NCBI GenBank assembly: GCA_020632335.1
Contig: JACKFV010000001.1
Coordinates: 30,001-62,000, forward strand
Length of the DNA: 32,000 bases
Origin: Candidatus Saccharimonadota bacterium
GTDB lineage: Bacteria; Patescibacteriota; Gracilibacteria; UBA4473
Direction: 5' to 3'
A program made the translations under genes and the position numbers. The notes under the pieces were generated by a model that was given only the letters and a program-made list of their open reading frames with translations, searched no databases and was not told the origin of the DNA. Shown one piece after another: positions 1-32,000 of this stretch; position 1 is the stretch's first letter, and each line of letters opens with the position of its first letter.

Positions 1-651
1 GTCGTCATGGGCCTTGAAGATGCTCATGCGGTAGCTATAGAGCTGCGGGAGTATTTCTCGTGTGTGGGGTATTGCCGTAGGATCCTCCAGGGAGGTAATC
101 TGGTAGCGCTCCCCTGCCCCATAGGGGGTCTGAGACGTCTTTGCCCTATTGCGCGAGTGAACGCCATTCTCTGGCCGCTGCGTCACCACTATCCGCCAGA
201 GCTGCCCCGCGCCATCACACATATCTACCCACTGCAGGCTCTCCCACGTCCCCGAGCCAAAGGCCTCGGCATTCCCCCGCACAAAGCCTCCCAGCTGCCC
301 CGGTATGCCGGCCATGCGCTCCAGGTCTGCGTAGCCGGCGCGCGCGGTGTCCTCCACCAGCTGGCTCATGATGACCCCGGCGTCCGCGATGAGCAGCATT
401 TTCCCCTCTGGCTGTGGCTGCCAGTAGCGCTCCGCGGCGGATAGATGCACCACCGTCCCGCGGAACCCCGCATCGGCCCACGCGGTATTGCTCCCCTTCC
501 CGAGGATTCTGCAGGGGGTTTTACTCGCGTGTAGCTGCGCCCACAGCGGCGGAAGTTCGGCAATGTGCTCCACCGTGATGAGCGTATCCGCCACGCCGCC
601 TATGCCCCAAAAGGTACGTTTGCTGAGGGGGACGGTATGTTCCACTTGCAT
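1..651 (-). CDS. murB: UDP-N-acetylenolpyruvoylglucosamine reductase MurB, N-terminal part (3' end lies beyond window start)
   Basis: Minus-strand frame is open from ATG 651..649 to base 1. It is absent from the ORF track because it has no stop in the window. Hand translation MQVEHTVPLSKRTFWGIGGVADTLI..ILGKGSNTAWADAGFRGTVVHL..ADAGVIMSQLVEDTARAGYADLERMAGIPGQLGGFVRGNAEAFG fits the MurB FAD-binding motifs (GxGSN; GIPGxxGG..NAGA). Track ORF 7..444(+) is its in-phase antisense shadow. Confidence 0.75.
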   Translation of the reverse strand, partial: MQVEHTVPLSKRTFWGIGGVADTLITVEHIAELPPLWAQLHASKTPCRILGKGSNTAWADAGFRGTVVHLSAAERYWQPQPEGKMLLIADAGVIMSQLVEDTARAGYADLERMAGIPGQLGGFVRGNAEAFGSGTWESLQWVDMCDGAGQLWRIVVTQRPENGVHSRNRAKTSQTPYGAGERYQITSLEDPTAIPHTREILPQLYSYRMSIFKAHDD

Positions 652-657
652 AGACAG

Positions 658-685
658 ACTATAGAAGTATGCTGAAGACTCACAA
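658..685 (-). promoter_or_regulatory. Putative leaderless promoter of murB: TTGTGA-16-TATAGT, then 6 nt to the ATG
   Basis: Read on the minus strand: -35 TTGTGA (685..680), -10 TATAGT (663..658), gap CTGTCT, ATG at 651. Same geometry as 13 other genes in the window. Confidence 0.5.
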
Positions 686-696
686 GCAAACCACTA

Positions 697-1275
697 ATGA
701 CTACTACCCCACTGTCCCCCGAAAAGATCGTGTATCACGGCCGCATTGTGTGCGTGAAGCAGCAGGAGTTCCGGGCAGGCGACACCGTCAAAGTATTCGA
801 GCGTGCAGAGAGGGCCCCCGGCGTGCGAATGATCATTACTGATGGGCAGCGGATCCTCCTTACCCATGAGTACCGCCATGAGCTCGAGCGCTATGATTAT
901 CGCCTCCCAGGAGGGAAGGTGGTAGATTCTCTGGAAGAATACCTCGAGATCTCGGGAGATATGACAGCGTATGCCGAGGAAGCCGTACGCCGTGAAGCAC
1001 GAGAAGAAGCGGGCGTAGATGTCCAGTCACTGCGGTTACTAGGGGTGAGCCACTGCGGCGCTACCATGGTATGGGATCTCTACTACTATGTGGTGGAGCA
1101 GTTCCAGCAACTACCACACCAGCAGTTAGAAGCGGGAGAGTCCATAACCGTACAGTGGTTTTCCATTGACGAAGTGTACGCCATGTGTATGAATGGGGCT
1201 GTAAGTGAAGAACGAAGTGCACTCGTGCTCTTACGCTTTATCCCTACTCTCTCCTCTCATGAACCTCTGGACTGA
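697..1275 (+). CDS. Nudix hydrolase (ADP-ribose pyrophosphatase-like)
   Basis: 192-aa ORF with a Nudix box region: LPGGKVV..(insert)..AVRREAREEAGVD. Ends in TGA and overlaps the ppa start by 17 nt. Confidence 0.75.
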   Translation: MTTTPLSPEKIVYHGRIVCVKQQEFRAGDTVKVFERAERAPGVRMIITDGQRILLTHEYRHELERYDYRLPGGKVVDSLEEYLEISGDMTAYAEEAVRREAREEAGVDVQSLRLLGVSHCGATMVWDLYYYVVEQFQQLPHQQLEAGESITVQWFSIDEVYAMCMNGAVSEERSALVLLRFIPTLSSHEPLD

Positions 1276-1795: not shown

Positions 1796-3954
1796 GGGCG
1801 AGAGGTCACGAGCGTCGGCCAGAGGATGGTGCTGTTTTGGCTCGTGATGCAGCCCCCGGGGTAGCCGTAGCTGCCGTTGGGCAGGACCTCCGTAGCGTAG
1901 GTGCACTCGCTGCCACCCGGGCGATACCGCCTCAGGCGACTGAGATCATACGCGGCGCTGACGGCCTCAGCCTCTTGCCCGTCCCACACGGTACCGGTGA
2001 GCATCTCAGGAGAGTCGAGCAGACTGCCCCACGGCGTGTGCAGCTGCGGCTGGGTCGTCGTCTGGTCCTTCACGGTGCTGCCACCCACGGTATTCTGCGT
2101 CGAGAGACTCCCCACAACGAGCAGCTGCGCGGTGGCGTCCTCAGCGCCAGTGATGACCGAAGACCAGTCTGAGAGCGGCATGGTGGTATTCTCGGGTACG
2201 CGTAGCAACGCCCCATCAGCGTAGATATGCGCGTGGAGCCGCCGCACATCGTCCTCTATAAAGACATTGCCGGTAGCGGGGAAGGGAGCCTGCGTGTCAT
2301 TCAGCAGGTAGATATGCAGCGTGCTGGTGGTGGTAGACGGCAGCAGATCATCCGCGATGAGCAGATTCCCGTTGCGGATAAGCAGCACCTGGTGCCCGGC
2401 CGGCAGCTGGCTGATATAGCGAATCCCACGAGTAGTGCCCACCCCGGTGGTGCCCAGCAGCGTCACGTCCTCGTTCTCGTAGAGGAGGGCGTTTTGCCCA
2501 TTCCAGAAGGCACTCATGGCCTCCGTTCCGTCTAGCCCGGTGTACAGCAGCGGCAACGAGCGAATCGCATCCGCCCGGTGGAGTGTCTCCAGCCCGGTAG
2601 TGCGAGCGATGCGGTCTGTGCTGGTGCCCGGTGCGGTGTCTATCTCACTGGTGGTGGGGCTAGCTATCAGGTGCCCTGCCTCCACTGCAAATCCGTACTG
2701 TGCCATACTCGCCACGTCACAGTTATAGCCCCAGATCTCCTCACACGTCTCCTCCGCCACGCCGCTGACGTCCATACCGCCACTGTAGTAGCGCACGGTT
2801 TTCCCTCCCACGGTGTACTGCGCCAGGGTGTAGAAGTCCAGCGGCTCGCCACTATAGACGTAGGGAGCCACCTCTGTGGGGGTCGTGGGGACCTCATAGG
2901 GCGTGAGGTCGCTGGTGTCTATAGGCCCCAGGATGCTGTAGGGCAGCGCCTCCGCACTGTAGGAGAGCTGTGTGAGCTGGTCCATACTCGTGCGCAGCTG
3001 CAGTACGTCCAGCGTGATGCCGGGCGTAGCGCTCATCTGCAGGGCATAGTCTGGGGTGAGGGTGAGGGTGTTTTCCTCGCCTATCTGCAGGAGCTCGAGG
3101 CTGGGGGTCAGGCTCGCCAGCGGCAGCGCGGTGAGCAGTACCCGGCGCTGGAGGGGGGTGATCGCGGTGCTATGCGGCGTGCCATCTGGCGTGATGCGGG
3201 GCACCCACACGGTATAGCTCAGGCCATTCTCCACCACCTGGGAGAGCGTGATTATCGTCTGTCCGCTCTGCACGGGGTGCACGATGCTGGGGGCTATGGC
3301 GGCTATGGCCTGGCCGATGGTGCCCCCCGTCATGGTGAGGGTCTGTGGAGTGGTGAGTAGCGCGGTGCCTGTACTCGCGTTCCGTAGCCCGTCTGCGAAA
3401 CTGGTGGCCAGGTTTGCCTCTGGGGTGAGGGCGTCGGCAGTGATGCTGGTGGTCATCGTGGTGCCCTCCAGCTGCGTGAGTGTATTGCCGTAGGGGTCGC
3501 GCAGCGGCAAGCTCCACAGGCAACTATCAGCCCCGTCAGCGTACACCGTGCAGCTCTGGGACTGGCTCACCGCACCTGGGCTGCCCGGCATGACGGTCAC
3601 GGTTTTGCTCCCACTGGTGCTGCCACTGCTACTCAGGCCCTCTATGGTGTAGGTTCCCGCGGCGGTGAAACAGCGATCAGCGGTACTATTGGGACTATTC
3701 AGGAGGGTCATGCCGCCCTGCCAGAGCGCCAGTGGGAAGGTCACGGTGCTGCCCGTCTGGCCCATGCAGGTCATGCTGGTGCCGGGCTCAGCGGGGTTGA
3801 AGCTCACCTGCAAGCTGACGATAGGGTCGCTGCCGGCTACGGGGAGGGAGCTCAGGGTTATTGCTCCCCCACTGGGAGCCGGCCCAGGGGTTACCGTAGC
3901 CCAACTATAGCCGAGGAAGAGGAGGGGGAGAGAGCTCCAGAGGAGGCGGTGCAT
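1792..3954 (-). CDS. Hypothetical large secreted protein (720 aa), no recognised domain
   Basis: Start at ATG 3954 gives a signal-peptide-like N-terminus (MHRLLWSSLPLLFLGYSWA). T/S/G-rich, scattered Cys pairs, no motif I recognise. A TACACT -10 box lies 6 nt upstream of this ATG. Confidence 0.7.
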   Translation of the reverse strand: MHRLLWSSLPLLFLGYSWATVTPGPAPSGGAITLSSLPVAGSDPIVSLQVSFNPAEPGTSMTCMGQTGSTVTFPLALWQGGMTLLNSPNSTADRCFTAAGTYTIEGLSSSGSTSGSKTVTVMPGSPGAVSQSQSCTVYADGADSCLWSLPLRDPYGNTLTQLEGTTMTTSITADALTPEANLATSFADGLRNASTGTALLTTPQTLTMTGGTIGQAIAAIAPSIVHPVQSGQTIITLSQVVENGLSYTVWVPRITPDGTPHSTAITPLQRRVLLTALPLASLTPSLELLQIGEENTLTLTPDYALQMSATPGITLDVLQLRTSMDQLTQLSYSAEALPYSILGPIDTSDLTPYEVPTTPTEVAPYVYSGEPLDFYTLAQYTVGGKTVRYYSGGMDVSGVAEETCEEIWGYNCDVASMAQYGFAVEAGHLIASPTTSEIDTAPGTSTDRIARTTGLETLHRADAIRSLPLLYTGLDGTEAMSAFWNGQNALLYENEDVTLLGTTGVGTTRGIRYISQLPAGHQVLLIRNGNLLIADDLLPSTTTSTLHIYLLNDTQAPFPATGNVFIEDDVRRLHAHIYADGALLRVPENTTMPLSDWSSVITGAEDATAQLLVVGSLSTQNTVGGSTVKDQTTTQPQLHTPWGSLLDSPEMLTGTVWDGQEAEAVSAAYDLSRLRRYRPGGSECTYATEVLPNGSYGYPGGCITSQNSTILWPTLVTSRP

Positions 3955-3960
3955 CGCTCT

Positions 3961-3990
3961 AGTGTACCGCAGAACCTGCCCGCAGAGCAA
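3961..3990 (-). promoter_or_regulatory. Putative leaderless promoter: TTGCTC-18-TACACT, then 6 nt to ATG 3954
   Basis: Minus strand: -10 TACACT (3966..3961), gap AGAGCG, ATG 3954. The -35 is weak (TTGCTC, 18-nt spacer). Confidence 0.4.
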
Positions 3991-5841: not shown

Positions 5842-6402
5842 TTAGGGTTTCAGGATCATAATGCCTTGCCGGCCAGAAATCTTGGGCGGCGTGTCGATAG
5901 TATAGGGCGACTCTAGGGCGTCAAGAAATGCTTGCATTTTTTCGAGCGCGATGTCCTTATGCGCCATCTCTCGGCCCTTTATCTGCAGCGTTACCTTGAT
6001 GCTATGCCCCTCAGAGAGGAAGTCATCGGTGTGCTTGGCCTGGCGCTGCATGTCTCCTACGTCCATACGGAAGGTCAGGCGTATCCCCTTGAGCTCCGCG
6101 GCGGTGGTCTTGCGCTTCATTTCTTTGTCAATCTTCTGCTGCGCGTAGAGGAGTTTTCCCACGTCTATGAGCTTGCACACGGGCGGATCAGCCTTAGGAC
6201 TCACCTCCACGAGGTCGACTTCGCGGTCTTTGGCGGCCCAGAGCGCGTCTTGCAGAGACATCACTCCGAGGACCTCCCCGTCAGGCAGTAGCACGCGCAC
6301 GGGGTCGGCAGTGATCTGCTTATTCACTCGGTACTTGGGTTTGGGGTCGATGGTCTGGGAGGGGCGTTTGTTCTTGCGGCCGCCGCGGAAGGAGAGTCCT
6401 AT
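5842..6402 (-). CDS. infC: Translation initiation factor IF-3 (5' boundary uncertain; probable non-AUG start)
   Basis: ..YRVNKQITADPVRVLLPDGEVLGVMSLQDALWAAKDREVDLVEVSPKADPPVCKLIDVGKLLY.. is the IF3 N-domain and linker. The track starts at GTG 6327, but the frame stays open up to the TAA at 6417..6415 and encodes a basic tail (I)GLSFRGGRKNKRPSQTIDPKPKYR like the IF3 N-terminal tail. The only candidate starts there are ATA (6402) and ATC (6351). Confidence 0.85.
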   Translation of the reverse strand: MGLSFRGGRKNKRPSQTIDPKPKYRVNKQITADPVRVLLPDGEVLGVMSLQDALWAAKDREVDLVEVSPKADPPVCKLIDVGKLLYAQQKIDKEMKRKTTAAELKGIRLTFRMDVGDMQRQAKHTDDFLSEGHSIKVTLQIKGREMAHKDIALEKMQAFLDALESPYTIDTPPKISGRQGIMILKP

Positions 6403-6426
6403 GGCTGGGGTGGATTAGGTAGCGGC

Positions 6427-6454
6427 ATTGTAATGGCCCTGCAGCGAATGTCAA
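6427..6454 (-). promoter_or_regulatory. Near-consensus sigma70-type promoter upstream of infC: TTGACA-16-TACAAT
   Basis: Minus strand: -35 TTGACA (6454..6449) overlaps the TGA stop of the upstream gene. 16-nt spacer, -10 TACAAT (6432..6427). Predicted TSS near 6420, about 18 nt before the ATA codon at 6402. Confidence 0.6.
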
Positions 6455-7922: not shown

Positions 7923-7975
7923 ACAGCAGGGGCAAGGGTGCCAGCGGAGCACCTCTACACGGGTACACAACGTGA

Positions 7976-8003
7976 ATTATCCTCATTTTGTGCTGGGAGT
8001 CAA
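7976..8003 (-). promoter_or_regulatory. Putative promoter of the membrane-protein pair: TTGACT-16-GATAAT
   Basis: Minus strand: -35 TTGACT (8003..7998), 16-nt spacer, -10 GATAAT (7981..7976). The -10 ends 5 nt before the TTG at 7970 and 53 nt before ATG 7922. Confidence 0.5.
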
Positions 8004-8022: not shown

Positions 8023-8050
8023 TTGACACCCCCCCCTGCCGCTCTACTCT
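8023..8050 (+). promoter_or_regulatory. Putative promoter of the lipoprotein/FN3 pair: TTGACA-16-TACTCT
   Basis: Perfect -35 TTGACA (8023..8028), 16-nt spacer, TACTCT (8045..8050). A leader follows, containing AGGAG (8053..8057), before ATG 8074. This is a leadered contrast to the leaderless genes. Confidence 0.5.
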
Positions 8051-8073
8051 ACAGGAGATAAAAAGAAATAAAC

Positions 8074-8454
8074 ATGAAACCCCTCTATACCGCTTCTTTA
8101 CTGGCATTTTGCGTTGTGGTACTCACGGGTTGTGGAGTTTTTTCTCGAAAAGACAGCACCACAAACACCACCCCTGAGGCCCCAGTAGCCACTGTGCCGG
8201 GCACGCCCTCGACCATCATGACGCCCCCAGAACAGGTCAAGCTCAACTCCCTGGTGTGCGATACCTACTTTGAGGACCTCATGAGTTGCTTTGAACAATT
8301 CCCTGAGGCGCAACGCCCGCAGCTGGTGGAGCAGCTCTACGCGGCTAAGAAGTCGCTGCTGGTCTTCCCTACCGAGCTGCGTGGCGAGGAGTGCCGCAAC
8401 GCCAAGGCCGAGGCCATAAACGTCTATGCGGATATGGGCTGTACCTTCCGCTAG
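8074..8454 (+). CDS. Small lipoprotein, unknown function
   Basis: MKPLYTASLLAFCVVVLTGCG is a signal peptide with lipobox L-T-G-C. It is followed by a T/P-rich linker and a helical domain with four Cys. Confidence 0.75.
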   Translation: MKPLYTASLLAFCVVVLTGCGVFSRKDSTTNTTPEAPVATVPGTPSTIMTPPEQVKLNSLVCDTYFEDLMSCFEQFPEAQRPQLVEQLYAAKKSLLVFPTELRGEECRNAKAEAINVYADMGCTFR

Positions 8455-8526
8455 ATCCGCTAAGAGATGCCCAGGGTTGACGGGGAGCGAGAGATCACTA
8501 GTGTGGAGCTGTTAGCCCTCCCCTAC

Positions 8527-9744: not shown

Positions 9745-9770
9745 GGCTGGCGTTGACTGATATGCAGATG

Positions 9771-9797
9771 AAAAAGAGGCCTTGTGCCTCTTTTTTT
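9771..9797 (+). terminator. Rho-independent terminator after the FN3 gene
   Basis: aaaaAGAGGC-cttgt-GCCTCTttttttt: 6-bp GC-rich stem, 5-nt loop, 7 T. The A-tract upstream could make it bidirectional. Confidence 0.8.
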
Positions 9798-9809
9798 CTT
9801 GGCTAGAGT
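9782..9809 (+). promoter_or_regulatory. Putative leaderless promoter of the HTH/S24-like gene: TTGTGC-16-TAGAGT, then 7 nt to the ATG
   Basis: -35 TTGTGC (9782..9787) sits in the loop and right arm of the preceding terminator, and the T-tract forms the spacer. -10 TAGAGT (9804..9809), gap GGAGGAG, ATG 9817. Confidence 0.4.
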
Positions 9810-9816
9810 GGAGGAG

Positions 9817-11351: not shown

Positions 11352-11357
11352 ACCCCT

Positions 11358-11385
11358 ATGATGCTGCGAGTGACGCTATGGTCAA
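11358..11385 (-). promoter_or_regulatory. Putative leaderless promoter of fmt: TTGACC-16-CATCAT, then 6 nt to the ATG
   Basis: Minus strand: TTGACC (11385..11380), 16-nt spacer, CATCAT (11363..11358), gap AGGGGT, ATG 11351. Confidence 0.4.
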
Positions 11386-13129: not shown

Positions 13130-13135
13130 AGCCAG

Positions 13136-13163
13136 AGCATAGCCCGCAGAGGCTGGTTGGCAA
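13136..13163 (-). promoter_or_regulatory. Putative leaderless promoter of holA: TTGCCA-16-TATGCT, then 6 nt to the ATG
   Basis: Minus strand: TTGCCA (13163..13158), 16-nt spacer, TATGCT (13141..13136), gap CTGGCT, ATG 13129. It fills the 41-nt gap after the ABC-F stop. Confidence 0.55.
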
Positions 13164-14961: not shown

Positions 14962-14968
14962 CCTCACC

Positions 14969-18570: not shown

Positions 18571-18590
18571 CCCCACTCCGGTGGGGTTTT
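18571..18590 (+). terminator. Rho-independent terminator after the beta-propeller gene
   Basis: CCCCAC-tccg-GTGGGG, a perfect 6-bp stem, followed by TTTT. Confidence 0.75.
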
Positions 18591-18604
18591 CAAAAGCCTC
18601 TCCC

Positions 18605-18632
18605 TTGCCAGGCGATTCTCTGCCCCTAGACT
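18605..18632 (+). promoter_or_regulatory. Putative leaderless promoter of recG: TTGCCA-16-TAGACT, then 7 nt to the ATG
   Basis: TTGCCA (18605..18610), 16-nt spacer, TAGACT (18627..18632), gap AGCAGTA, ATG 18640. Confidence 0.5.
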
Positions 18633-18639
18633 AGCAGTA

Positions 18640-21977: not shown

Positions 21978-22023
21978 GGTCGTTAGTATGCGTATAGTGG
22001 CAGAGAACACAACTGTAGACCGC

Positions 22024-22951: not shown

Positions 22952-24974
22952 GGGGGTAGTGGGTAAAGAAATCGGTGATAAGGCCCGTCACATGAGTAAT
23001 TTCCTCCGGGGTGAGGGTGTGATCCGCCGCCTGCAGCCGGCACCGGTAGACGTGGTTACACTGGGTGTCTCCCCAGCGCTGGGCGTCGTGGTAGGTACTC
23101 AGCAGCTGCGCATGCGTGATGCGCCCGTCCAGCCCCTGCAGCGCTGTGATGAGGGGTCCGCTCTCGGTACGCGTGGGCAGCAACACCGAGACGTCGCGGT
23201 GCACCGCAGGGTAGGGCGATGGCGGGGTATACTGCCGCACGGTAGTCTCCGCTATAGCCAGCAGCGCAGCGGTAGAAAGCTCTGCAAAGACCACACTGGT
23301 CCCCTCAGGCACAGCGTGTGGGTGTACCACGCTGAGGATCCCTATCTCCTGCCCATCTACCTGTAGCACGCCGGTATTCTCTGGGTGGCAGAGCGCATGT
23401 GGCGGCGCTCCCCGCGTGACGGTCAGCGTGCGGTGCTGCATATCCAGCAGCGCCTGGAGATCCTCCCGCAGGGCCGCGAGCTGCTCACCGGCGTCCTCCC
23501 CTCGCCCGCCACGCACCAGGCAGTAGTGCGATTTTTCCTCCACCGCCGGGCTGGCCTCACGGTAGACATGGCCCCACTCCACCAGCCGCAGGTCCTCCTC
23601 GCTACGCAGGGGCACCTCGGCCTGAGCCACAATGCCGGCAATGAGCGTCTGACGCAGGAGCCCCTGAGCACTACTGAGTGGGTTGCTCACCGCTACGTAG
23701 TCGCTGAGGCCCGTCATCTTGGGGCGGTCCTCCGGCGCGAAATCATAGCCCATGTACTCGTTGTAGCCCCGTGCACTGAGGCACTGCAGCAGGCCCCGCG
23801 TGTAGTGCTGCTCGGCATTGGGTGGCAGCGGCGCGAGAGGAAAACTCGGCAGTACGCCCTCTATATGGTGGAATCCATACACCCGCATTACCTCCTCATA
23901 TACGTCTGCTACGTCGGTGATGTCCTTAGTGGCGCGCCAGCTGGGCGGCGTTACACTCCACTCTGTGGGCGAATACACCACCACGGTGAACCCCAGCCGC
24001 TCGAGAATGCCCTGCACGGCGGCATTGGTAATGGAGATACCGCTGACCTGCCGGAGCCGCTCGGGGCTGAGCGGTATAGGGCGGATGACCAGATGCTGCG
24101 GGTAGGAGTCCGTTATGCCGCTCGGCAACGTGACGCCAGGGCACGCTAGAGAGAGCTCCCGTAGCGCCTGGTGGAGTACGGGCACCACGTCCTGAGGGTT
24201 CAGCGATTTCTCAAACCGCACACTGGCCTCGGTGCGTATCCCCAGCCGTCCGGCCGTCCGCCGCACCTGCACGGGGTCAAAGTGCGCCGCCTCCAGGAGG
24301 ATACTGGTGGTCTGCTCGCTCACCGCGGTGCGCATGCCGCCCATCACCCCCGCTATCGACACCGGCCCCAGACTATCAGCAATGATGATATCCTCTCCGC
24401 TCAGCAGGTACTGCTCCCCGTCCAGCGCCAGCAGCCGCTCGCCCTCCCGCGCCATACGCACCGTGAGCGGACCTGAAATCTTCTCGGCGTCGAAGGCATG
24501 CATCGGCTGCCCGTACTGCAGGCACATCTGGTTGGTGATGTCTACCGCTGCACTCACCGGGCGCGTCCCCAGGGCCTGGAGCGTCGTCTGCAACGCGGCA
24601 CTACTGGGCTGATTCGGCGGGAGGTGCTCCACCCGTGCCAGCGCAAACCGGGTACACAGCGGCGTCTCTAGCGTGAGGGGAATGCGGTTATCTACCGGTA
24701 AGAGCGCCCCAGACCCGGACGAAAAATCCTCCAGAGGACTGCTGAACGGTAGGTCATAGAGCACCGCTATCTCCCGCGCAAACCCCAGGTGAGAGAAGAG
24801 ATCTGGCCGGTGGGTGAGCGTTTTATTGTCGATGTCGAGGAGTACTCCCGCCTCTGCCGTCTCGAGCAGGTCCTCTACCTCAGCCGTGTGCACCGTCAGC
24901 CGGTGGGTGAGGTCCTGCAGGTCTATACCGCTGATGTCGACAAAGGGCGCGAGCCACCGCAGAGAGAGCTTCAT
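22935..24974 (-). CDS. pheT: Phenylalanine--tRNA ligase beta subunit (short form lacking the N-terminal OB tRNA-binding domain)
   Basis: [34 protein letters not shown] (B1 domain) runs directly into ..[32 protein letters not shown] (B3/4). B5, the catalytic-like core and the C-terminal FDX-ACB-like region are present. 679 aa, versus about 795 in E. coli. Confidence 0.88.
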
Positions 24975-24980
24975 ATCGCT

Positions 24981-25008
24981 AGCCTACTAGCCACTCACCA
25001 GCTGTCCA
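24981..25008 (-). promoter_or_regulatory. Putative leaderless promoter of pheT: TGGACA-16-TAGGCT, then 6 nt to the ATG
   Basis: Minus strand: TGGACA (25008..25003), 16-nt spacer, TAGGCT (24986..24981), gap AGCGAT, ATG 24974. It occupies the 36-nt ftsK-pheT gap. Confidence 0.5.
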
Positions 25009-25010
25009 GA

Positions 25011-27347
25011 TTACCAGCCGTCATTCTCCGCACTCTGGAGGAAAATCTCCCGTGGCTTGGCCCCACGCGCTGGGCCAATGACCCCCCGTTCCTCCATCTG
25101 GTCCAGGATCCTCGCTGCGCGCGCGTACCCCACCTCCAGCAGTCGCTGCAGCATACTCGCTGAGGCCTTGTTGTACTGCAACACCAGCGCCACCGCCTTG
25201 TCATAGAGGTCATCGGTATCCTCATCGCTCAGGGGTTCTATGCCCGCGGTCAGCACGCCACCCTTGGCCATACCGTCTATTTTGTGCTCGGTGATTTCGT
25301 CTACGCGGGCTACCTCTGGGTAGTTGAGCTTCACGTTATTCACGATGCGCTCTATCTCCTCGTCGCGTATCCACAGGCCCTGTATGCGCGTCAGGCTGCC
25401 GTCGTTCCCGTTGAGGTAGAGCATATCGCCAAAGCCGAGGAGATCCTCCGCGCCGATCTGGTCAATGATGGTCCGGGAGTCTATCCCGCTGCTGACTTTA
25501 AAGGCTATCCTGGCGGGCAGGTTCGCCTTAATGAGCCCCGTCACCACGTCTACGCTCGGGCGCTGGGTAGCGATCATCAGGTGCATGCCCACTGCCCGGG
25601 CCATCTGTGCTATGCGGCATACCGCGGCTTCTACGTCTTTGCCGGCCACCATCATCAGGTCCGCTAGCTCGTCGATGACAATGACAATGTAGGGCTCTGG
25701 CGTCTCTTTGTACTTCTGGTTATAGCTCTTCAGGTCCCTTACCCCGCTCTCCTCCATCAGCTTATACCGCCGGTTCATCTCTGCTACCGCCCATGCCAGC
25801 GCGCTGGTGGCCTTATCGGGCTCGGTGATGACGGGCGTCAGCAGGTGGGGGATTTTATCATAGGGCTTGAGCTCCACGCGCTTGGGGTCTACGAGGATGA
25901 GTTTGAGCTCGCTGGGGCTGTTATTCCACAGCAGACTGCAGAGGAAGGCGTTCATCCCCACGCTCTTTCCGCTCCCGGTCTTCCCCGCTATCATGAGGTG
26001 CGGCATCTTGCTGAGGTCGGCTACTACCGCCTTGCCCTGCGCGTCACGCCCCATGGCCAGCTTCAGCTTGCTCTTCTGCTGGGCCCAGGCCTTGCTCTCT
26101 ATGATCTCGCGGAACCCCACATTCGCCCGCTCCGCATTGGGGATCTCTATCCCCACCAGGCTCTTCCCGGGTATGGGGGCTTCTATCCGCATCGTGGTGG
26201 CCGCCAGCGCGAGGCTCAGGTCTCGCTTCAGCCCGGCTATCTTGCTGATCTTCACCCCTGGGGCGGGCTCCAGCGCAAACTGCGTCACCGTCGGCCCCAC
26301 ATAGATGCTGCGCACCGTCACCTCCAGCCCGAACTGCTCTAGCTTCTGCACGATGCGGTCAGCCAGCTGTTGCAGCGCGGCTTCATCCGCCACGATGGTG
26401 CTGTGGTCGTTATAGAGGATCTCCCGGTTCAGCGGTATGAAAGGGATCTGCCGCGGGTTGAGCTCCGCCGGGGGGAGGTCACTGGTAGGCACAGCAGGTG
26501 GCGTAGGGGGAGCGGGCGGCTTAGCGTCCAGGCGGTCGGTAGCCGCTGAGAGAATCTCTGGCCGTTGCTTTTGCTCGGTCAAGTGAGGCTGTACTACGGG
26601 GCCACTACTGGTGATGGGAGTGCGGGGGTTGTCACCAGAGTTGATTACTTTTGCCCCCGGTATGGCTGCAGGAGTCCGCTGAAATAGCGCCAGAATATGC
26701 CGCACTCGCAGCCCAAATCCGAGCGTAAGAAAGACCCACAGCAGCCCGAGGAGGATCACCACCGCAAACACATCGCCAAAGAGCGAGCGGAGAAAATACC
26801 CCATCGCAAAGCCAATACTGCCCCCATAGCGGTCAGACTGCGCGGCAGATTCCTCCAGCGGCAGTGCCATATTCAGCAGCCCCAGCAGCGTAGCCACCGT
26901 ACCCAGCACCCCCAGCAGCTGCAGCGCCGGCATGGCTCGCCAACGCTTGCGCAGTACCTGCACCCCCGCCAGCAGCAGCCCCAGCCCCAGAGCCCACACC
27001 CCGGCTCCCACCGCGCGCCGCAGCAGCAGCTCCACACTGTCGCTCAGTGGCCCGGTGCTGAGCAGCAACGCGTACACCCCCACCCCCAGGGCTATGAGCC
27101 CAATGCCATAGACCTCTGCGCTGAGGTGCTCGTCCCAGTACTGTTCCCACGCCTCCTGCCGCTTGACTGCCGCTGCGGCCCTGGCCTGGACTTTCTCCTT
27201 CTGCCGGGCACGTTTTGCGGCTGCGGCTTCCCGCTGTTTCTCTTGCTGTAGTTGCTTTCTCGCTAGTTTCTCGGCTTCCTTTTTTATCAGCTTCTGCGGG
27301 ATTTTCACACTCGCGGTGTTCTTTTTCTTTGTCGTTATCTGGAACAT
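25011..27347 (-). CDS. ftsK: DNA translocase FtsK/SpoIIIE
   Basis: 778 aa. Lys-rich N-tail, four or more TM helices, a P-rich linker, motor domain (GKTGSGKSVGMNAF.., VIVIDELADLMM, ATQRPSVDV) and a gamma winged-helix (ASASMLQRLLEVGYARAARILDQMEERGVIGP). Confidence 0.95.
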   Translation of the reverse strand: MFQITTKKKNTASVKIPQKLIKKEAEKLARKQLQQEKQREAAAAKRARQKEKVQARAAAAVKRQEAWEQYWDEHLSAEVYGIGLIALGVGVYALLLSTGPLSDSVELLLRRAVGAGVWALGLGLLLAGVQVLRKRWRAMPALQLLGVLGTVATLLGLLNMALPLEESAAQSDRYGGSIGFAMGYFLRSLFGDVFAVVILLGLLWVFLTLGFGLRVRHILALFQRTPAAIPGAKVINSGDNPRTPITSSGPVVQPHLTEQKQRPEILSAATDRLDAKPPAPPTPPAVPTSDLPPAELNPRQIPFIPLNREILYNDHSTIVADEAALQQLADRIVQKLEQFGLEVTVRSIYVGPTVTQFALEPAPGVKISKIAGLKRDLSLALAATTMRIEAPIPGKSLVGIEIPNAERANVGFREIIESKAWAQQKSKLKLAMGRDAQGKAVVADLSKMPHLMIAGKTGSGKSVGMNAFLCSLLWNNSPSELKLILVDPKRVELKPYDKIPHLLTPVITEPDKATSALAWAVAEMNRRYKLMEESGVRDLKSYNQKYKETPEPYIVIVIDELADLMMVAGKDVEAAVCRIAQMARAVGMHLMIATQRPSVDVVTGLIKANLPARIAFKVSSGIDSRTIIDQIGAEDLLGFGDMLYLNGNDGSLTRIQGLWIRDEEIERIVNNVKLNYPEVARVDEITEHKIDGMAKGGVLTAGIEPLSDEDTDDLYDKAVALVLQYNKASASMLQRLLEVGYARAARILDQMEERGVIGPARGAKPREIFLQSAENDGW

Positions 27348-27353
27348 ACCCCC

Positions 27354-27359
27354 ACTATA
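27354..27359 (-). promoter_or_regulatory. -10 box TATAGT, 6 nt upstream of the ftsK ATG (leaderless geometry; -35 weak)
   Basis: Minus strand: TATAGT-GGGGGT-ATG(27347). The GGGGGT-ATG junction is identical to that of ruvA. Confidence 0.4.
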
Positions 27360-27442
27360 GCGCTCCTCCGCTGGTACGCCACTGCCAGGTATTGCGCTAC
27401 GGCAGAGGTGTGATAAAGTGTATCTAATCAGGCAGAGATCGG

Positions 27443-27471
27443 TTTACATCCTCCCGAGTATCGGCTATACA
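27443..27471 (+). promoter_or_regulatory. Putative leaderless promoter of the VanW gene: TTTACA-17-TATACA, then 6 nt to the ATG
   Basis: TTTACA (27443..27448), 17-nt spacer, TATACA (27466..27471), gap GAGGGT, ATG 27478. Confidence 0.55.
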
Positions 27472-27477
27472 GAGGGT

Positions 27478-28926
27478 ATGAAGCGATGGCTCTTGCTCGT
27501 CAGTCTGAGCGTCGGCACGGGCCTGAGCCATGCCGCGCTGCCCGAGCAGTTCATCCTCGACCTGCCCGAGGGCACCTATACCGTGGACCTTACTGAGAAT
27601 GAGACGCTGCTCAGCACGGTTATGCGGCCGGTGGTGCGCCTGGGGGAGCTCGCCCTGCCCTATGCCCCAGCAGTAGATACCCCGGAAGTCCTGGCCGGTG
27701 CAGACCCCGTCTACCCCCACTACGTCACGCTGGAGGCAAATACCACGCTGGACGGAGCCGCGCTGGAGGCGTATCTCACGCGGCGTGGAGCGGTGCGACC
27801 GGTAGGCAACACCCCCGTGAATATAGAAAAAACGGATACTGGCGTGCGCATCACGGGGCGGCCGTCGCTGGGGTATTGGCTGGATATTCCTCTGCTGATA
27901 CGCCTGGTGGAGGCTGTACCCACGCTCGGGACGCCACACATAGCGCTGCAGGGGCAGCTGCTCAGCCCCCCCATTACGGTGGAGGACAGCCTCTACCGCG
28001 AGGGAATACGGGAGATTATCGGCATCGGTGAGAGCTACTACTACGGCAGCCCTGCTGACCGCCGCACGAATATTGCTGTCGCCACCGCGCTCTATAACGG
28101 GGTACGGCTGGACCCAGGGGAGGTGTTCTCGTTTAACCGCATCTTGGAACCACACTTCAGCGCTGCGAATGGGTTTAAGGAGGAGCTGGTGATCAAGGGC
28201 GAGACGACCGAGAAAGAGCTCGGCGGGGGGGTGTGTCAGGTATCGACCACGGTGTTTCGCGCAGCGATAGATGCCGGACTGGAGATCGTCGAGCGCTCTC
28301 CCCACAGCTATGCGGTGCCCTACTACCGCGAACCCAGTGGCCATGGACTAGACGCCACGGTGTACTTTGGGGTGAAGGATTTCCGCTTCCGGAATGACAC
28401 CGAGAACCCCATACTCATCCAGAGCTATACCGAGGGCAGCGGGCTCTACTTTGTCTTCTACGGCACTCAGGACGGCCGCACCGTCACGCTGGAGAGTGAG
28501 GGCACCTGGGGCTACCACAGCGCGGGCGAGCCAGAAATCCGCTACACCACGGAGCTCCCCCCCGGTGCTGAGGAGGAGGTGAACCACGCCAAACAGGGAT
28601 TCCAGGCCCAGTGGGAGCGCACCGTGCACTACGCTGATGGCACCGAGGACACCGACACCTATTACTCCAACTACCGTGCCGTAGCGGCTGAGATCCTCCG
28701 TGGAGCTGCCGCTACCCCCGTGGTACCCACCCCAGAACCGGCAGTGACTCCCACGCCCGCTGCTCTAGAGGCGCCTATTCCTACCCCACGGGTCTTTGCG
28801 CCGCCCGTCATCACCCCGCCAAGCACCCCCACTAGCGCTACTACAGAGCCCTCAGACACCCCCACGACTCCCCCCATAGAGCCGAAGCGCGACCCCCGCC
28901 TGGAGTATATGCGGTCTCGGCAGTAG
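27478..28926 (+). CDS. VanW-domain protein with signal peptide and a P/T-rich C-terminal tail
   Basis: MKRWLLLVSLSVGTGLSHA, then ..GEVFSFNRIL..GGGVCQVSTTVFRAAIDAGLEIVERSPHSYAVPYY..GLDATV (VanW core). The C-terminus is about 80 aa of P/T/A low-complexity sequence. Confidence 0.85.
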   Translation: MKRWLLLVSLSVGTGLSHAALPEQFILDLPEGTYTVDLTENETLLSTVMRPVVRLGELALPYAPAVDTPEVLAGADPVYPHYVTLEANTTLDGAALEAYLTRRGAVRPVGNTPVNIEKTDTGVRITGRPSLGYWLDIPLLIRLVEAVPTLGTPHIALQGQLLSPPITVEDSLYREGIREIIGIGESYYYGSPADRRTNIAVATALYNGVRLDPGEVFSFNRILEPHFSAANGFKEELVIKGETTEKELGGGVCQVSTTVFRAAIDAGLEIVERSPHSYAVPYYREPSGHGLDATVYFGVKDFRFRNDTENPILIQSYTEGSGLYFVFYGTQDGRTVTLESEGTWGYHSAGEPEIRYTTELPPGAEEEVNHAKQGFQAQWERTVHYADGTEDTDTYYSNYRAVAAEILRGAAATPVVPTPEPAVTPTPAALEAPIPTPRVFAPPVITPPSTPTSATTEPSDTPTTPPIEPKRDPRLEYMRSRQ

Positions 28927-28927: not shown

Positions 28928-28955
28928 TTGCCAGAGTGTAGATGGTCGTTACCAT
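28928..28955 (+). promoter_or_regulatory. Putative leaderless promoter of the second Nudix gene: TTGCCA-16-TACCAT, then 6 nt to the ATG
   Basis: TTGCCA (28928..28933), 16-nt spacer, TACCAT (28950..28955), gap GCCCGC, ATG 28962. Confidence 0.5.
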
Positions 28956-28961
28956 GCCCGC

Positions 28962-29486
28962 ATGACAACCTACACCACCTATACCAATGCGGAGAAAATC
29001 GCCTTCCGCAAAGCCCTCCCGAAGAAATATTGGTCCGCTGGAGCCCTCATCCCCGATACACAGGGGCAGTACCTGCTGGTGCATGACCACCAGGGCCGAT
29101 GGAATGTAGTAGGTGGCCTGGGGGATGCCGGCGAGACGCTCCTCGAGACCCTCTACCGAGAGATGCAGGAGGAGATTGGTCTGCAACTGCCCGTGCAGCA
29201 GCTCCTGGTGCTGGATGACAAGCAACTGATGATAGACGACTACTGCGATGAGAGCTGGCATACGCTCTGGCTCACCGCCCCCATTACTGAGGAGCAGAAG
29301 GCCTCTATACGCATCGACCACCAAGAAATCCTCGACTACGGGTTCTTCCCCTGGGAGAAATGCTTGGCCCGAGTACCCGACTCCCTCGCGAGGCGGCTTA
29401 CGCACCTCACTCCCTCCGCATGGGGATTTGTCTACCTCGAGAACGAGGAACTCCCCACACATCCCACCGCTTGCAGTGCTGGCTAG
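28962..29486 (+). CDS. Nudix hydrolase
   Basis: Canonical Nudix box GGLGDAGETLLETLYREMQEEIGL (Gx5Ex7REUxEExGU). 174 aa. Confidence 0.85.
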   Translation: MTTYTTYTNAEKIAFRKALPKKYWSAGALIPDTQGQYLLVHDHQGRWNVVGGLGDAGETLLETLYREMQEEIGLQLPVQQLLVLDDKQLMIDDYCDESWHTLWLTAPITEEQKASIRIDHQEILDYGFFPWEKCLARVPDSLARRLTHLTPSAWGFVYLENEELPTHPTACSAG

Positions 29487-29498
29487 CACCCCTATACT
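29471..29498 (+). promoter_or_regulatory. Putative leaderless promoter of ruvA: TTGCAG-16-TATACT, then 6 nt to the ATG
   Basis: TTGCAG (29471..29476) lies inside the 3' end of the Nudix CDS. 16-nt spacer, TATACT (29493..29498), gap GGGGGT, ATG 29505. Confidence 0.55.
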
Positions 29499-29504
29499 GG
29501 GGGT

Positions 29505-30074
29505 ATGATCGGCCTTCTCACTGGCACCGTACGGGGCATCACGGGTAGCCGTGTGCTGCTGATGACCTCTGGCGGGGTGGGCTATAGCGTCACTGCCGCG
29601 GGCGAGCTCCTCAGCCACTGCCGCCTGGGGGAGAGCCTGACCTGCTACATCTACACCGCGGTACGAGAGAACGACATCACGCTCTATGGCTTTGCGAGTG
29701 AGGGCGCGCTTCGGCTCTTTGAGCAGGTGATTCAGGTCAGTGGCATCGGGCCTAAGGTGGGCATTGCTATTGCCTCGGTGCCGCAGGAGAGGGTCTATAG
29801 CGCGGTGGAGCTGGGCGATATCTCTCTGCTAAAATCCATCCCTGGCCTTGGGCCCAAGACGGCGAAAAAGCTCGTGCTGGAGCTCCAGGGACGGCTTATC
29901 CTCGAACCTAATAGCACCGCGCAGCAGCCTAAAAGCCCTGCTATGGAGGACGCACTAGAGGCACTGGTGGGCCTGGGATATGAGCCAAAGACCGTCCACC
30001 AGGTGCTGGATACCGCGCCAGAGAGCCTCACTACCGAGGAGCTGGTGCGCTACTTCCTCACCCACCCCGCATGA
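29505..30074 (+). CDS. ruvA: Holliday junction branch migration complex subunit RuvA
   Basis: MIGLLTGTV....GGVGYSV (OB domain), two HhH motifs (VSGIGPKVGIAI; IPGLGPKTAKKLVLEL) and C-terminal domain III. 189 aa. Confidence 0.9.
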   Translation: MIGLLTGTVRGITGSRVLLMTSGGVGYSVTAAGELLSHCRLGESLTCYIYTAVRENDITLYGFASEGALRLFEQVIQVSGIGPKVGIAIASVPQERVYSAVELGDISLLKSIPGLGPKTAKKLVLELQGRLILEPNSTAQQPKSPAMEDALEALVGLGYEPKTVHQVLDTAPESLTTEELVRYFLTHPA

Positions 30075-30307
30075 TGCAGCGTCTACTCCTGGGGCTTGTG
30101 GCCCTCTATCAGCGTACCGTGAGCCCGCTGCTCAGCCTCACGCGCCACCCGCAGGACATCCCGCACTGCTGCAAATTCTACCCCAGCTGCAGTGAGTACG
30201 CCCGCCAGTGTCTGCAGAGGTATCCTTGGTATAGCGCTGTGGGGAGGAGTATCTGGCGCGTGGTGCGCTGTCACCCCTGGAGCAAGGGGGGCGTAGACCT
30301 GCCATAA
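30071..30307 (+). CDS. yidD: Membrane protein insertion efficiency factor YidD
   Basis: LYQRTVSPLL....CKFYPSCSEYARQCLQRY......IWRVVRCHPWSKGGVD is the YidD signature. Its start overlaps the ruvA stop in ATGA. Confidence 0.9.
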   Translation: MMQRLLLGLVALYQRTVSPLLSLTRHPQDIPHCCKFYPSCSEYARQCLQRYPWYSAVGRSIWRVVRCHPWSKGGVDLP

Positions 30308-30314
30308 GGCACTC

Positions 30315-30342
30315 TTGCCAGTTGCCGCGGCGCGACTACACT
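30315..30342 (+). promoter_or_regulatory. Putative leaderless promoter of the PBP gene: TTGCCA-16-TACACT, then 6 nt to the ATG
   Basis: TTGCCA (30315..30320), 16-nt spacer, TACACT (30337..30342), gap GCCCCC, ATG 30349. Confidence 0.55.
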
Positions 30343-30348
30343 GCCCCC

Positions 30349-32000
30349 ATGCTGCAGCAACGGCGTCGCCCTCGCAAGATAGTAGAGCCAGAAGTCTATG
30401 ACTTTGATACCCCTTCCCGCAGGGGCTGGACGCGTATCTTTACGCTGCGGTTCTGGTGGTGGGTGGCCACACGGATTGGCCTGCCGCTCCTCGTCATCTT
30501 CCTCGTGGGCAGCTACCTCTACGCACAGTACGGCCTGCCGAGCATCGAAGAAACCGAGGAGTTTCTCTTCCCGCAGGCGTCGGTTATCTACGCGCGCCAG
30601 GCACTGGAGGAGCCCGAAAAGAAGGATCAGTACGCGCTGTACCGGCTGCACGGGGGCGAGAACCGCGCCTATGTGCCGCTGAGCGAGATCTCTCAACATA
30701 TGATAGACGCCACCCTGGCGGCGGAGGACGACCAGTTTTTCTCGCATCATGGGGTAGATTTCCCCGCGCTGATCAAGGCAGTGGCGGCGCAACTGGGCAT
30801 CGGGCCACCACGGGGCGGCTCTACCATCACCCAGCAGCTGATGAAAAATGTCTTCCTCGACTCCCGCCAGCAGCTCACACGGAAGTACAAAGAGGCGCTC
30901 CTGGCCTTCAAGACCGAGGCCTACTACACCAAGGAGCAGATCCTCGAGCTCTACCTCAATAAGATTTTTATGGGTTCTAATGCCTATGGGGTAGAGGCCG
31001 CTGCGCAGACCTTCTTTGCCAAGAAGGCCGCCGACCTCAGCATCTGTGAGAGTAGTGTGCTGGCCGCACTGCTCAAGCTCCCCACGCGTCTGAACCCCTA
31101 CGGTCCGGGGGTCGGGGAGCTCATGGGCGTCTACGAGACCGATGAGGAGGGCAACCCCACAGGCGCCTTCACCCCTGGGCGGAAGGATATGGTGCTGCGG
31201 CGTATGCTCGAGGAGGGCTTCATCACCCAGGCCGAGCACGACCAGGCCGTGGAGGAATGCCGTACGCTGGAGTTCCAGCAGACCAAGAGCGACATCCGCG
31301 CGGCGCATTTTGTCTTCCTCGTGCAGCAGCAGGTGGCCGAGAAATACGGTGAAGACATCCTCACCGCGGGGGGGCTGCAGATCTACACCACGCTCGACTG
31401 GGACCTCCAGCAGATCGCCGAGGATACCATCGCTGAGAAAACCACCGACTACAAAACCAAGTACAACGCTAGCAATGCAGCGCTGGCTACCATCAACCCC
31501 GAGAATGGGGAGATCCTGGCCTATGTGGGGGGGCGAGATTACTTCGACGATGAGGCCGACGGCAAGGTGGACGTGCTGCAGAGCAAACGCCAGCCGGGGA
31601 GTAGCTTCAAGCCGCTGGTCTATGCTACTGCCTTCACAGAGGCCGGGCTGGGAGCGGGTACGGTGCTCTGGGACGTCCCCACGGACTTCGGCGCGGGGTA
31701 TACTCCCCAGAACTTCTCGGGGAACTTTACCGGCCCGGTGACGGTACGCCGCGCGCTGAATGAGTCGCTGAACATCCCCGCCATCAAGGCCGCTACCCTC
31801 GCCGGCCCGGAGAACATCCTACAGATGGCCACCACGCTGGGCATCGACTATGCCGGAGACGCGGACATCCACGGTGTGGCACTAGGGGTAGGGGTAGCGG
31901 AGGTGAATATCCTCGGGCATATTAATAGCTTTTCGGCCTTTGCGGGTGATGGTAGCTGGTACACCCCCAGCAGCCTGCTGGAGATACACGATAGCGACGA
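30349..32000 (+). CDS. Class A penicillin-binding protein (GT51 transglycosylase plus transpeptidase), 3' end beyond the window
   Basis: Frame-1 hand translation from ATG 30349 is open to the window end, so it is not in the track. MLQQRRRPRK.., a TM helix (WWWVATRIGLPLLVIFLVGSYL), GT51 motifs (AAEDDQFFSHHGVD, RGGSTITQQLMKN, RKYKEALLAFK..YTKEQILELYLN) and the transpeptidase SxxK (QPGSSFKPLVYA). Track ORFs 30271..31308(-) and 31142..31741(+) are off-frame shadows. Confidence 0.9.
   Translation, partial: MLQQRRRPRKIVEPEVYDFDTPSRRGWTRIFTLRFWWWVATRIGLPLLVIFLVGSYLYAQYGLPSIEETEEFLFPQASVIYARQALEEPEKKDQYALYRLHGGENRAYVPLSEISQHMIDATLAAEDDQFFSHHGVDFPALIKAVAAQLGIGPPRGGSTITQQLMKNVFLDSRQQLTRKYKEALLAFKTEAYYTKEQILELYLNKIFMGSNAYGVEAAAQTFFAKKAADLSICESSVLAALLKLPTRLNPYGPGVGELMGVYETDEEGNPTGAFTPGRKDMVLRRMLEEGFITQAEHDQAVEECRTLEFQQTKSDIRAAHFVFLVQQQVAEKYGEDILTAGGLQIYTTLDWDLQQIAEDTIAEKTTDYKTKYNASNAALATINPENGEILAYVGGRDYFDDEADGKVDVLQSKRQPGSSFKPLVYATAFTEAGLGAGTVLWDVPTDFGAGYTPQNFSGNFTGPVTVRRALNESLNIPAIKAATLAGPENILQMATTLGIDYAGDADIHGVALGVGVAEVNILGHINSFSAFAGDGSWYTPSSLLEIHDSD

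Follow-up and report, generated by a model that had tools for sequence, protein, structure and literature searches.

Candidate leaderless promoters and the absence of usable Shine-Dalgarno sequences in a 32-kb genome segment of a Candidatus Peribacteria bacterium

Introduction

How does a ribosome find the start codon of a gene when the promoter of that gene ends only six or seven nucleotides (nt) in front of it? The question is raised by a 32-kb stretch of DNA from contig JACKFV010000001.1 of the GenBank assembly GCA_020632335.1, referred to here as the window, in which a pair of hexamers resembling the -35 and -10 elements of bacterial promoters recurs immediately upstream of start codons. 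A preliminary description of this DNA had listed 14 such genes and proposed that their mRNAs are leaderless; all 14 upstream strings, with their hexamers, were found at the positions listed. We consider it likely, on the statistics of the sequence, that these genes carry sigma-70-type promoters placed for leaderless mRNAs, which would be translated without a Shine-Dalgarno (SD) sequence. Coordinates are window positions, with (+) and (-) denoting the strand.

A recurrent promoter unit close to the start codon

Aligned on the -10 hexamer, the 14 sites give the consensus cTTGcCA-N16-TAnACT-N6/7-ATG. The gap between the -10 hexamer and the ATG is 6 nt at ten sites and 7 nt at four, and the spacer between the two hexamers is 16 nt in 11/14. 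Within the -10 hexamer, A is found at the second position of all 14 sites, T at the sixth position of 13 and T at the first position of 12; the T, T and G of the -35 hexamer are present in 13/14, 10/14 and 11/14 sites, respectively. The preliminary description had proposed a comparison with other ATG codons, and within the window the enrichment is strong: the strict form TAnnnT ends 6-7 nt 5' of 11/27 gene starts and of only 9/875 other ATGs on both strands (binomial P=1.5e-15). The two hexamers are also coupled to one another, with TTG lying exactly 16 nt upstream of the -10 element at 9/14 sites against a background of 0.8% (P=2e-16).

The eight cleanest sites lie on both strands. The murB promoter (649..685, -) consists of TTGTGA (685..680), a 16-nt spacer and TATAGT (663..658), followed by a 6-nt gap and ATG 651. 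The gene for a 720-aa secreted protein (3952..3990, -) is preceded by TTGCTC (3990..3985), an 18-nt spacer, TACACT (3966..3961) and a 6-nt gap, and its ATG 3954 opens the signal peptide MHRLLWSSLPLLFLGYSWA. The remaining six all have a 16-nt spacer. HTH-S24 (9782..9819, +) has TTGTGC and TAGAGT (9804..9809) with a 7-nt gap before ATG 9817, and recG (18605..18642, +) has TTGCCA and TAGACT (18627..18632) with a 7-nt gap before ATG 18640. The other four have a 6-nt gap: holA (13127..13163, -; TTGCCA, TATGCT at 13141..13136, ATG 13129), in which the promoter fills the 41-nt spacer after the ABC-F gene; nudix2 (28928..28964, +; TTGCCA, TACCAT at 28950..28955, ATG 28962), in which it fills the 35-nt spacer after VanW; ruvA (29471..29507, +; TTGCAG, TATACT at 29493..29498, ATG 29505), in which the -35 hexamer lies within the nudix2 coding sequence; and PBP1 (30315..30351, +; TTGCCA, TACACT at 30337..30342, ATG 30349).

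A matrix built from these eight sites and applied to the six weaker ones, with 888 ATGs as background, placed each of the six in the top 1% (p <= 0.009). These are fmt (11349..11385, -; TTGACC, 16-nt spacer, CATCAT at 11363..11358, 6-nt gap, ATG 11351; p=0.009); ABC-F (14959..14996, -; a weak -35 TGTACA, 16-nt spacer, TACACT at 14974..14969, 7-nt gap, ATG 14961; p<0.002); SLH-Cys (21975..22012, -; TTGTGT, 16-nt spacer, CATACT at 21990..21985, 7-nt gap, ATG 21977); pheT (24972..25008, -; TGGACA, 16-nt spacer, TAGGCT at 24986..24981, 6-nt gap, ATG 24974; p=0.003), the promoter of which fills the 36-nt spacer after ftsK; ftsK (27345..27382, -; a weak -35, TATAGT at 27359..27354, 6-nt gap, ATG 27347); and VanW, the weakest of all (27443..27480, +; TTTACA, 17-nt spacer, TATACA at 27466..27471, 6-nt gap, ATG 27478; p=0.007). 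At SLH-Cys the register has been corrected: TTGTGT stands as first described, and TACTAA with a 5-nt gap is replaced by CATACT with a 7-nt gap, which keeps A2, T6 and the 16-nt spacer. The strict TAnnnT is thus missed at three sites, fmt (CATCAT), SLH-Cys (CATACT in the 7-nt register) and VanW (TATACA, without T6), in which the key bases are all or mostly kept. VanW has a second promoter further upstream (27392..27419, +; TTGCGC-16-TAAAGT).

The preference for a single spacer length is a property of the whole window. Counted on both strands, the pattern TTGnnn-Nx-TAnnnT occurs 3, 2, 20, 3, 5, 5 and 5 times for x from 14 to 20, and shuffled sequence gives 6.0 +/- 2.5 matches at x=16, with a maximum of 13 among 300 shuffles. 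Of the 20 matches at x=16, 14 directly precede an annotated start in the same orientation. The promoter spacer is therefore unusually rigid, with its optimum at 16 nt here as against 17 nt in E. coli. A separate scan with a consensus promoter recovered six of the 14 sites (murB, fmt, holA, recG, nudix2 and PBP), together with the promoters of infC and of a gene for a 315-aa protein that are described below.

Two hexamers, a fixed spacing and the coupling between them identify these elements as what would be ordinary sigma-70-type promoters. RNA polymerase usually starts about 7 nt after the -10 hexamer. With the hexamer ending 6-7 nt before the ATG, the transcription start should thus fall on the A of the ATG, leaving no 5' leader. 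The start codon is ATG in all 14 genes and the base preceding it is a pyrimidine in 10/14, both of which agree with a purine at the transcription start and with a requirement for AUG at the 5' terminus. In the mechanism that we propose, the housekeeping sigma-70 RNA polymerase would begin the transcript at the first base of the ATG, and a ribosome with bound initiator tRNA would recognize the 5'-terminal AUG directly, with no SD pairing. The sequence statistics support the earlier suggestion that a -10 element so close to the ATG signifies a leaderless mRNA.

The promoter unit is not a general companion of start codons. The preliminary description had reported that genes overlapping their upstream neighbor lack it, and this is borne out. 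Five genes overlap in this way and have no full promoter: pilD, unk206, the lipoprotein gene and yidD have no -10 box at a gap of 5-8 nt, and ppa has a lone TACTCT at a gap of 8 nt, without TTG at 16-18 nt and hence without a -35 element. The ribosomal protein genes rpmI and rplT likewise have no -10 box at gap 5-8. The overlapping genes would be translated by coupled re-initiation after the upstream gene.

This distribution bears on the idea that the TAnnnT box is not a -10 element but a ribosome-binding signal of a non-SD kind on leadered mRNA, as in group B of the GeneMarkS-2 classification. Some other start-site signal is to be expected in a genome that lacks SD sequences, and A/T-rich elements near -12 boost translation in Flavobacterium (PMC6847099). 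However, the box is coupled to TTG exactly 16 nt upstream (P=2e-16), group B motifs precede all genes whereas the box is missing at 6-7 nt before internal and overlapping genes, and the same two-hexamer unit also occurs 22-25 nt from other starts. We regard a ribosomal role for the box as very unlikely.

A few further ATGs follow promoter-like strings. Those at 15577 (-) and 31043 (-) are antisense and have low third-position G+C (GC3) or a frame of 19 codons, and they are treated as chance occurrences. The top-scoring background ATG is an in-frame internal codon of the 720-aa protein gene, at 2775 (-). TACAGT ends 6 nt before it, and the codon could serve as an internal leaderless start or could owe its score to chance.

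Placement of the start codons

A fixed distance between promoter and start codon could arise by chance if start codons had been chosen freely to fit the motif, and 5/14 of the open frames do offer alternative upstream start codons. However, for eight genes (murB, fmt, holA, recG, pheT, ftsK, nudix2 and ruvA) the ATG is the first possible start in the open frame, and in the others the start is settled by a signal peptide or by independent annotation. A signal peptide directly follows the chosen ATG in the 720-aa protein, SLH-Cys and VanW, and ATG 14961 yields a canonical ABC-F N-terminus. With respect to Pfam, RuvA_N aligns from residue 1 of RuvA and Formyl_trans_N from residue 7 of Fmt. Gene calls on Logan contigs, which are short (1-6 kb), come from the SRR12358675 and SRR12358676 assemblies and are identical in sequence to the window, concur for nudix2, ruvA, yidD, PBP, ftsK, pheT and the lipoprotein, and identical proteins at NCBI concur on the starts of ftsK (778 aa) and SLH-Cys (433 aa). 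Free start choice therefore does not account for the match to the motif, and the ATGs assumed in the preliminary description stand. Given also a P of ~1e-15 against the 875 other ATGs, chance combined with a free choice of starts is an explanation of almost negligible probability. One competing codon, ATG 22100, has TAnnnT at a gap of 6 nt and was considered as the start of SLH-Cys; it is ruled out by the signal peptide at 21977 and the 433-aa length of the NCBI protein.

Absence of Shine-Dalgarno sequences and upstream base composition

Usable SD sequences are absent from all genes of the window. Over the 18 nt 5' of the 29 starts, the anti-SD is predicted to pair with a mean energy of -1.3 kcal/mol, more weakly than at random positions (-3.2 kcal/mol). 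This agrees with the earlier statement that the leaderless genes have no properly spaced SD. It extends to the rest of the window, since almost all of the 15 non-leaderless starts have duplex energies from -3.3 to +3.0 kcal/mol, and rplT and rpmI are also without an SD.

The non-leaderless starts have instead a composition of their own. For 14 of them (697, 1259, 5091, 5582, 5805, 6402, 7023, 8074, 8527, 12173, 15107, 15937, 22951 and 30074), G makes up 8% of positions -16 to -1 against a background of 31% (P=3e-9), and C makes up 43%. C is found at -6 in 12/14 and A at -13 in 10/14, the latter with P=5e-5 before correction for about 100 tests. The G content 5' of the 14 leaderless genes is 30%, against the 8% of the leadered and internal genes. 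Many of the non-leaderless upstream regions hold CCUCC-like runs, which have the same sense as the anti-SD and are not complementary to it.

The preliminary description had assigned ordinary leaders, two with AGGAG or AAGGGGA, to the exported-protein genes at 8074, 15107 and 15877. These are probably not SD sequences. The AGGAG before 8074 lies 16 nt from the ATG, at the predicted 5' end of the transcript, and AAGGGGA precedes a start (15877) that is probably unused. The three genes belong to a second class of promoter, with G-poor leaders.

A second promoter class with short leaders

At six or seven further genes the TTGnnn-N16-TAnnnT unit ends 22-25 nt 5' of the start, implying G-poor leaders of ~16-19 nt without an SD if transcription begins at the usual distance. 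The best promoter in the window belongs to this class. It serves infC (6400..6454, -) and consists of TTGACA, a 16-nt spacer and TACAAT (6432..6427), with a 24-nt gap to a probable ATA start at 6402. No canonical start lies upstream of the IF3 N-domain; IF3_N begins downstream of ATA 6402, the only in-frame candidate there. Four others also have a 16-nt spacer: nudix1 (646..699, +; TTGCAT, TATGCT at 668..673, 23-nt gap, ATG 697), a 126-aa lipoprotein (8023..8076, +; TTGACA, TACTCT at 8045..8050, 23-nt gap, ATG 8074), an fn3 secreted protein (8477..8529, +; TTGACG, TAGTGT at 8499..8504, 22-nt gap, ATG 8527) and a PPIase lipoprotein (15054..15109, +; TTGCGC, TAGGCT at 15076..15081, 25-nt gap, ATG 15107). 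An SLH/beta-propeller gene (15886..15939, +) has TCGACA, a 17-nt spacer, TACACT (15909..15914) and a 22-nt gap before ATG 15937. Two starts in this class were re-chosen after the promoters had been seen: that of the fn3 gene was revised from 8467 by its signal peptide, and ATG 15937 is preferred over 15877 on the basis of a signal peptide and the promoter.

The seventh candidate precedes a 315-aa membrane protein (7950..8003, -), with TTGACT, a 16-nt spacer and GATAAT (7981..7976). The candidate starts are TTG 7970 (gap 5), GTG 7952 (gap 23) and ATG 7922 (gap 53), and the gene may belong to the short-leader class if GTG 7952 is used. The start of the GT4 transferase gene is similarly ambiguous, lying at ATG 5091 or 5058; TACACT ends 10 nt before 5091, without a -35 element because the -35 position falls within tRNA-Gly. 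This tRNA gene (5110-5184, -) has rplT on one side and the GT4 gene on the other.

The two promoter classes meet at murB and nudix1, which are divergent and 45 nt apart. Their promoters occupy opposite strands of the same DNA (646-685), and the nudix1 -35 hexamer (TTGCAT) includes the complement of the murB ATG.

Intergenic spacers, terminators and transcription units

The promoter measures 34 nt from the -35 hexamer to the ATG, and many intergenic spacers are cut to one promoter length. Leaderless genes are separated from a co-directional upstream neighbor by 18-45 nt, and the lengths of 36, 41, 35 and 41 nt given earlier for four of these spacers are correct, as is the placement of the ruvA -35 hexamer inside the nudix2 coding sequence. 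In a streamlined genome of the Candidate Phyla Radiation (CPR), to which the host is assigned below, such spacers may have been reduced to a single promoter.

Terminators are found elsewhere, as the hairpins are confined to spacers of at least 72 nt. Intrinsic terminator hairpins follow the fn3 gene (9770..9798, +; z -3.45) and the PPIase gene (15826..15862, +; z -4.4), and a terminator-like hairpin follows the SLH/beta-propeller gene just before the recG promoter (18566..18591, +; z -4.4). The fn3 terminator has an A-tract on its 5' side and a T-tract on its 3' side, and the HTH-S24 -35 hexamer TTGTGC forms its loop and 3' stem. All three convergent gene pairs, ppa/720aa (1792-1795), HTH-S24/fmt (10455-10458) and recG/SLH-Cys (20676-20679), overlap by the palindrome CTAG, which supplies a TAG stop on both strands, so that no terminator can fit between the two genes. 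By far the longest spacer is a 336-nt non-coding stretch between tRNA-Leu and SLH-Cys (21978-22313). It contains promoter-like (+) sites at 22024-22051 and 22089-22116 and small open reading frames only, with no Rfam match; a terminator-like match within it (22111-22127) folds no better than shuffled sequence and carries no weight.

Since the 18-45 nt spacers hold a promoter and no terminator, read-through from upstream is to be expected, and the earlier claim that the genes form monocistronic units rather than operons goes further than the sequence supports. A stronger version of this point is that the promoters are real but mainly internal or secondary within read-through transcripts, with these genes mostly translated from leadered polycistronic mRNA, through SD-independent initiation or re-initiation, and leaderless mRNAs in a minority. 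The spacers of ftsK-pheT, ABC-F-holA, VanW-nudix2, nudix2-ruvA and yidD-PBP, all without a terminator, favor such a view, and genes that lack both an SD and their own promoter, namely rplT and rpmI as well as the overlapping pilD, lipoprotein and yidD, are evidently translated. However, an exact register of 6-7 nt at 14 genes would be needless if the promoter merely added transcripts, and the upstream regions of the leaderless genes are not depleted of G (30% versus 8%), which suggests that they have not been selected as internal initiation regions. We therefore judge it unlikely that leaderless mRNAs are the minority form, and retain the reading in which the promoters serve leaderless expression.

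By this reading, leaderless genes account for 14/29 protein genes and for 14 of the approximately 21 genes headed by a promoter (67%).

Gene content and host lineage

The window has a G+C content of 61% and a coding density of 95%, and it carries 29 protein genes and two tRNAs. The protein genes include murB, two Nudix genes, ppa, a GT4 transferase, an infC-rpmI-rplT cluster, fmt, a prepilin peptidase (pilD), holA, an ABC-F ATPase, a cyclophilin lipoprotein, two SLH proteins, recG, pheT, ftsK, VanW, ruvA, yidD and a class A PBP, along with several secreted or membrane proteins without Pfam matches. An Rfam scan of the window with gathering and E-value thresholds gave nothing beyond the two tRNAs.

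Two of the encoded proteins, FtsK (778 aa) and the SLH/Cys-rich protein (433 aa), have 100% identical counterparts at NCBI under the name 'Candidatus Peribacteria bacterium', and by this identity the host is assigned to Candidatus Peribacteria of the CPR. The Peribacteria are part of the Peregrinibacteria, within the CPR. The gene content of the window matches that of Ca. Peribacter riflensis, whose 1.25-Mb genome has 58.5% G+C and which possesses S-layer proteins and type IV pili as well as numerous large exported proteins rich in cysteine (PMC4736985).

The host is nevertheless isolated, its closest pheT homologue being only 36-38% identical. A search for pheT homologues found none between 38% and 100% identity, and so provided no close relatives for promoter footprinting; a RecG scan of the genome collection gave a single match, in a Lachnospiraceae genome at 36% identity, and an ABC-F scan of metagenomes gave no match above 36% identity. 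The FtsK motor domain, in contrast to the 36-38% of pheT, reaches 76% identity. The product of pheT itself (22935-24974, -) has 679 aa and is without the tRNA_bind domain found in most of its nearest homologues (~795 aa).

More distant relatives could be compared for their upstream regions. The loci L020 (GCA_020631075.1, 58% GC) and L022 (53% GC) were reached via matches to the SLH protein, the named examples of which include Peregrinibacteria and Patescibacteria, and L014 (GCA_021734785.1, 50% GC) via a pheT match named Candidatus Gracilibacteria. Their samples are small and their called starts unverified. Within these limits, G is depleted 5' of starts in L020 and L014 (P~1e-5, small samples), and TAnnnT is enriched in both at gaps of 5-10 nt (4/18 and 5/15) and 20-27 nt (4/18 and 4/15). 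Full promoters in L014, L020 and L022 cluster at gaps of 6-10 nt (n=6) and 21-29 nt (n=8). The architecture is thus probably a trait of this CPR branch, as far as these small sets of starts can indicate.

Several points weigh against the leaderless reading. Three of the sites are weak, VanW lacking T6 and ftsK and ABC-F having a poor -35 element. The evidence covers only 32 kb of the genome. It shows the motifs with their geometry and enrichment and the lack of SD sequences; from it we infer where transcription starts, that the 14 mRNAs are translated without a leader and how initiation proceeds on the remaining genes. The genes downstream of the 18-45 nt spacers are probably also carried on longer read-through transcripts. 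Finally, the clean pattern is missing from the distant relatives L018 and L019 (42-44% GC), which were chosen by FtsK similarity. L012 (35% GC) gave no clean signal either; all three are too AT-rich or too distant.

Relationship to known leaderless and SD-independent systems

The layout is known in other bacteria. Group C of the GeneMarkS-2 classification, in which a Pribnow box lies 6-8 nt from the start, contains 1028/4769 bacterial genomes, mostly of Actinobacteria and Deinococcus-Thermus, with 25-50% of operons predicted to be leaderless (PMC6028130). The geometry has been validated by differential RNA sequencing in M. tuberculosis and D. deserti, and in Deinococcus deserti 167/262 (64%) genes with verified starts are experimentally leaderless (PMC6028130). 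The window resembles group C in having a -10 box 6-8 nt from the start of the genes that head transcription units, with none before internal genes, in its ATG starts, and in the large share of units that appear leaderless. This share, about 67%, is like the 64% of D. deserti, so that the density is not higher than known as had been supposed, and it compares with the 25-50% predicted for the group. The earlier comparison with Actinobacteria and Deinococcus thus holds as regards a known leaderless class, but the host lineage is neither, being Candidatus Peribacteria. There are other differences. Leadered and internal genes of group C have SD sites, whereas none is found in this window, and the host here is a CPR bacterium with a clear -35 element, a rigid 16-nt spacer and intergenic spacers of promoter length.

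Initiation without an SD is also familiar from Flavobacterium johnsoniae, in which A-12 and A-13 are positive determinants of translation (PMC6847099). Both cases lack SD enrichment and favor adenine around -13/-12 (here A at -13 in 10/14 non-leaderless genes). In contrast, most F. johnsoniae transcripts are leadered (PMC6847099), and the upstream regions there are A-rich rather than C-rich and G-depleted as here. In the Bacteroidia the anti-SD is hidden by bS21, bS18 and bS6, whereas Peregrinibacteria are often without bS21 (PMC9297842). The leaderless archaea, represented by Haloferax, Halobacterium and Sulfolobus (GeneMarkS-2 group D), share with the window a leaderless majority of units and a promoter at a fixed distance from the start; the archaeal elements are a TATA box and B-recognition element 22-26 nt upstream, whereas a bacterial -35/-10 unit is found here.

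The ribosome of these bacteria is of particular relevance. The protein bS21 is frequently missing in Peregrinibacteria, Gracilibacteria and Absconditabacteria, and the anti-SD has been reported missing in some Parcubacteria only (PMC9297842). bS21 is in contact with the SD/anti-SD helix, and initiation is disturbed when it is missing (PMC9723584). The window itself contains neither a 16S rRNA gene nor rpsU, the gene for bS21. It is plausible that the loss of bS21 is linked to initiation that is SD-free and proximal to the 5' end. Full-text searches for leaderless expression in Patescibacteria, CPR and Saccharibacteria yielded no paper describing leaderless mRNAs in CPR bacteria, the few matches being items in reference lists or on unrelated topics. 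What appears to be new here is the occurrence of a group C-like architecture in a CPR lineage, together with a complete lack of SD sequences and spacers of promoter size.

Implications

The two promoter classes invite a more general proposal, which we put forward only tentatively and hold to be possible rather than likely. In the Peribacteria, and perhaps more widely in the Peregrinibacteria and Gracilibacteria, SD/anti-SD pairing may have been abandoned and the start codon chosen from the 5' end of the mRNA, with promoters at two quantized distances and internal genes served by re-initiation. The first distance would put the 5' end on the AUG itself. The second would leave a G-free leader of ~16-19 nt, as at the six or seven genes that have G-depleted, C-rich upstream regions behind a short-leader promoter; the remaining non-overlapping genes would share this upstream composition. 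A length of ~16-19 nt is roughly that of the mRNA covered by the small subunit upstream of the P site. Such an arrangement would go together with the loss of bS21 in the clade and with spacers that have shrunk to exactly one promoter.

Knowledge of leaderless expression in general is unchanged by these observations. In genomes such as this one, gene finders and annotators that expect an SD would mis-call starts, for which a simple placement rule may be used instead, namely an ATG 6-7 nt after TAnACT. For the organisms themselves, the architecture would connect start-codon selection with the reduced ribosome of the CPR, from which bS21 and other proteins have been lost.

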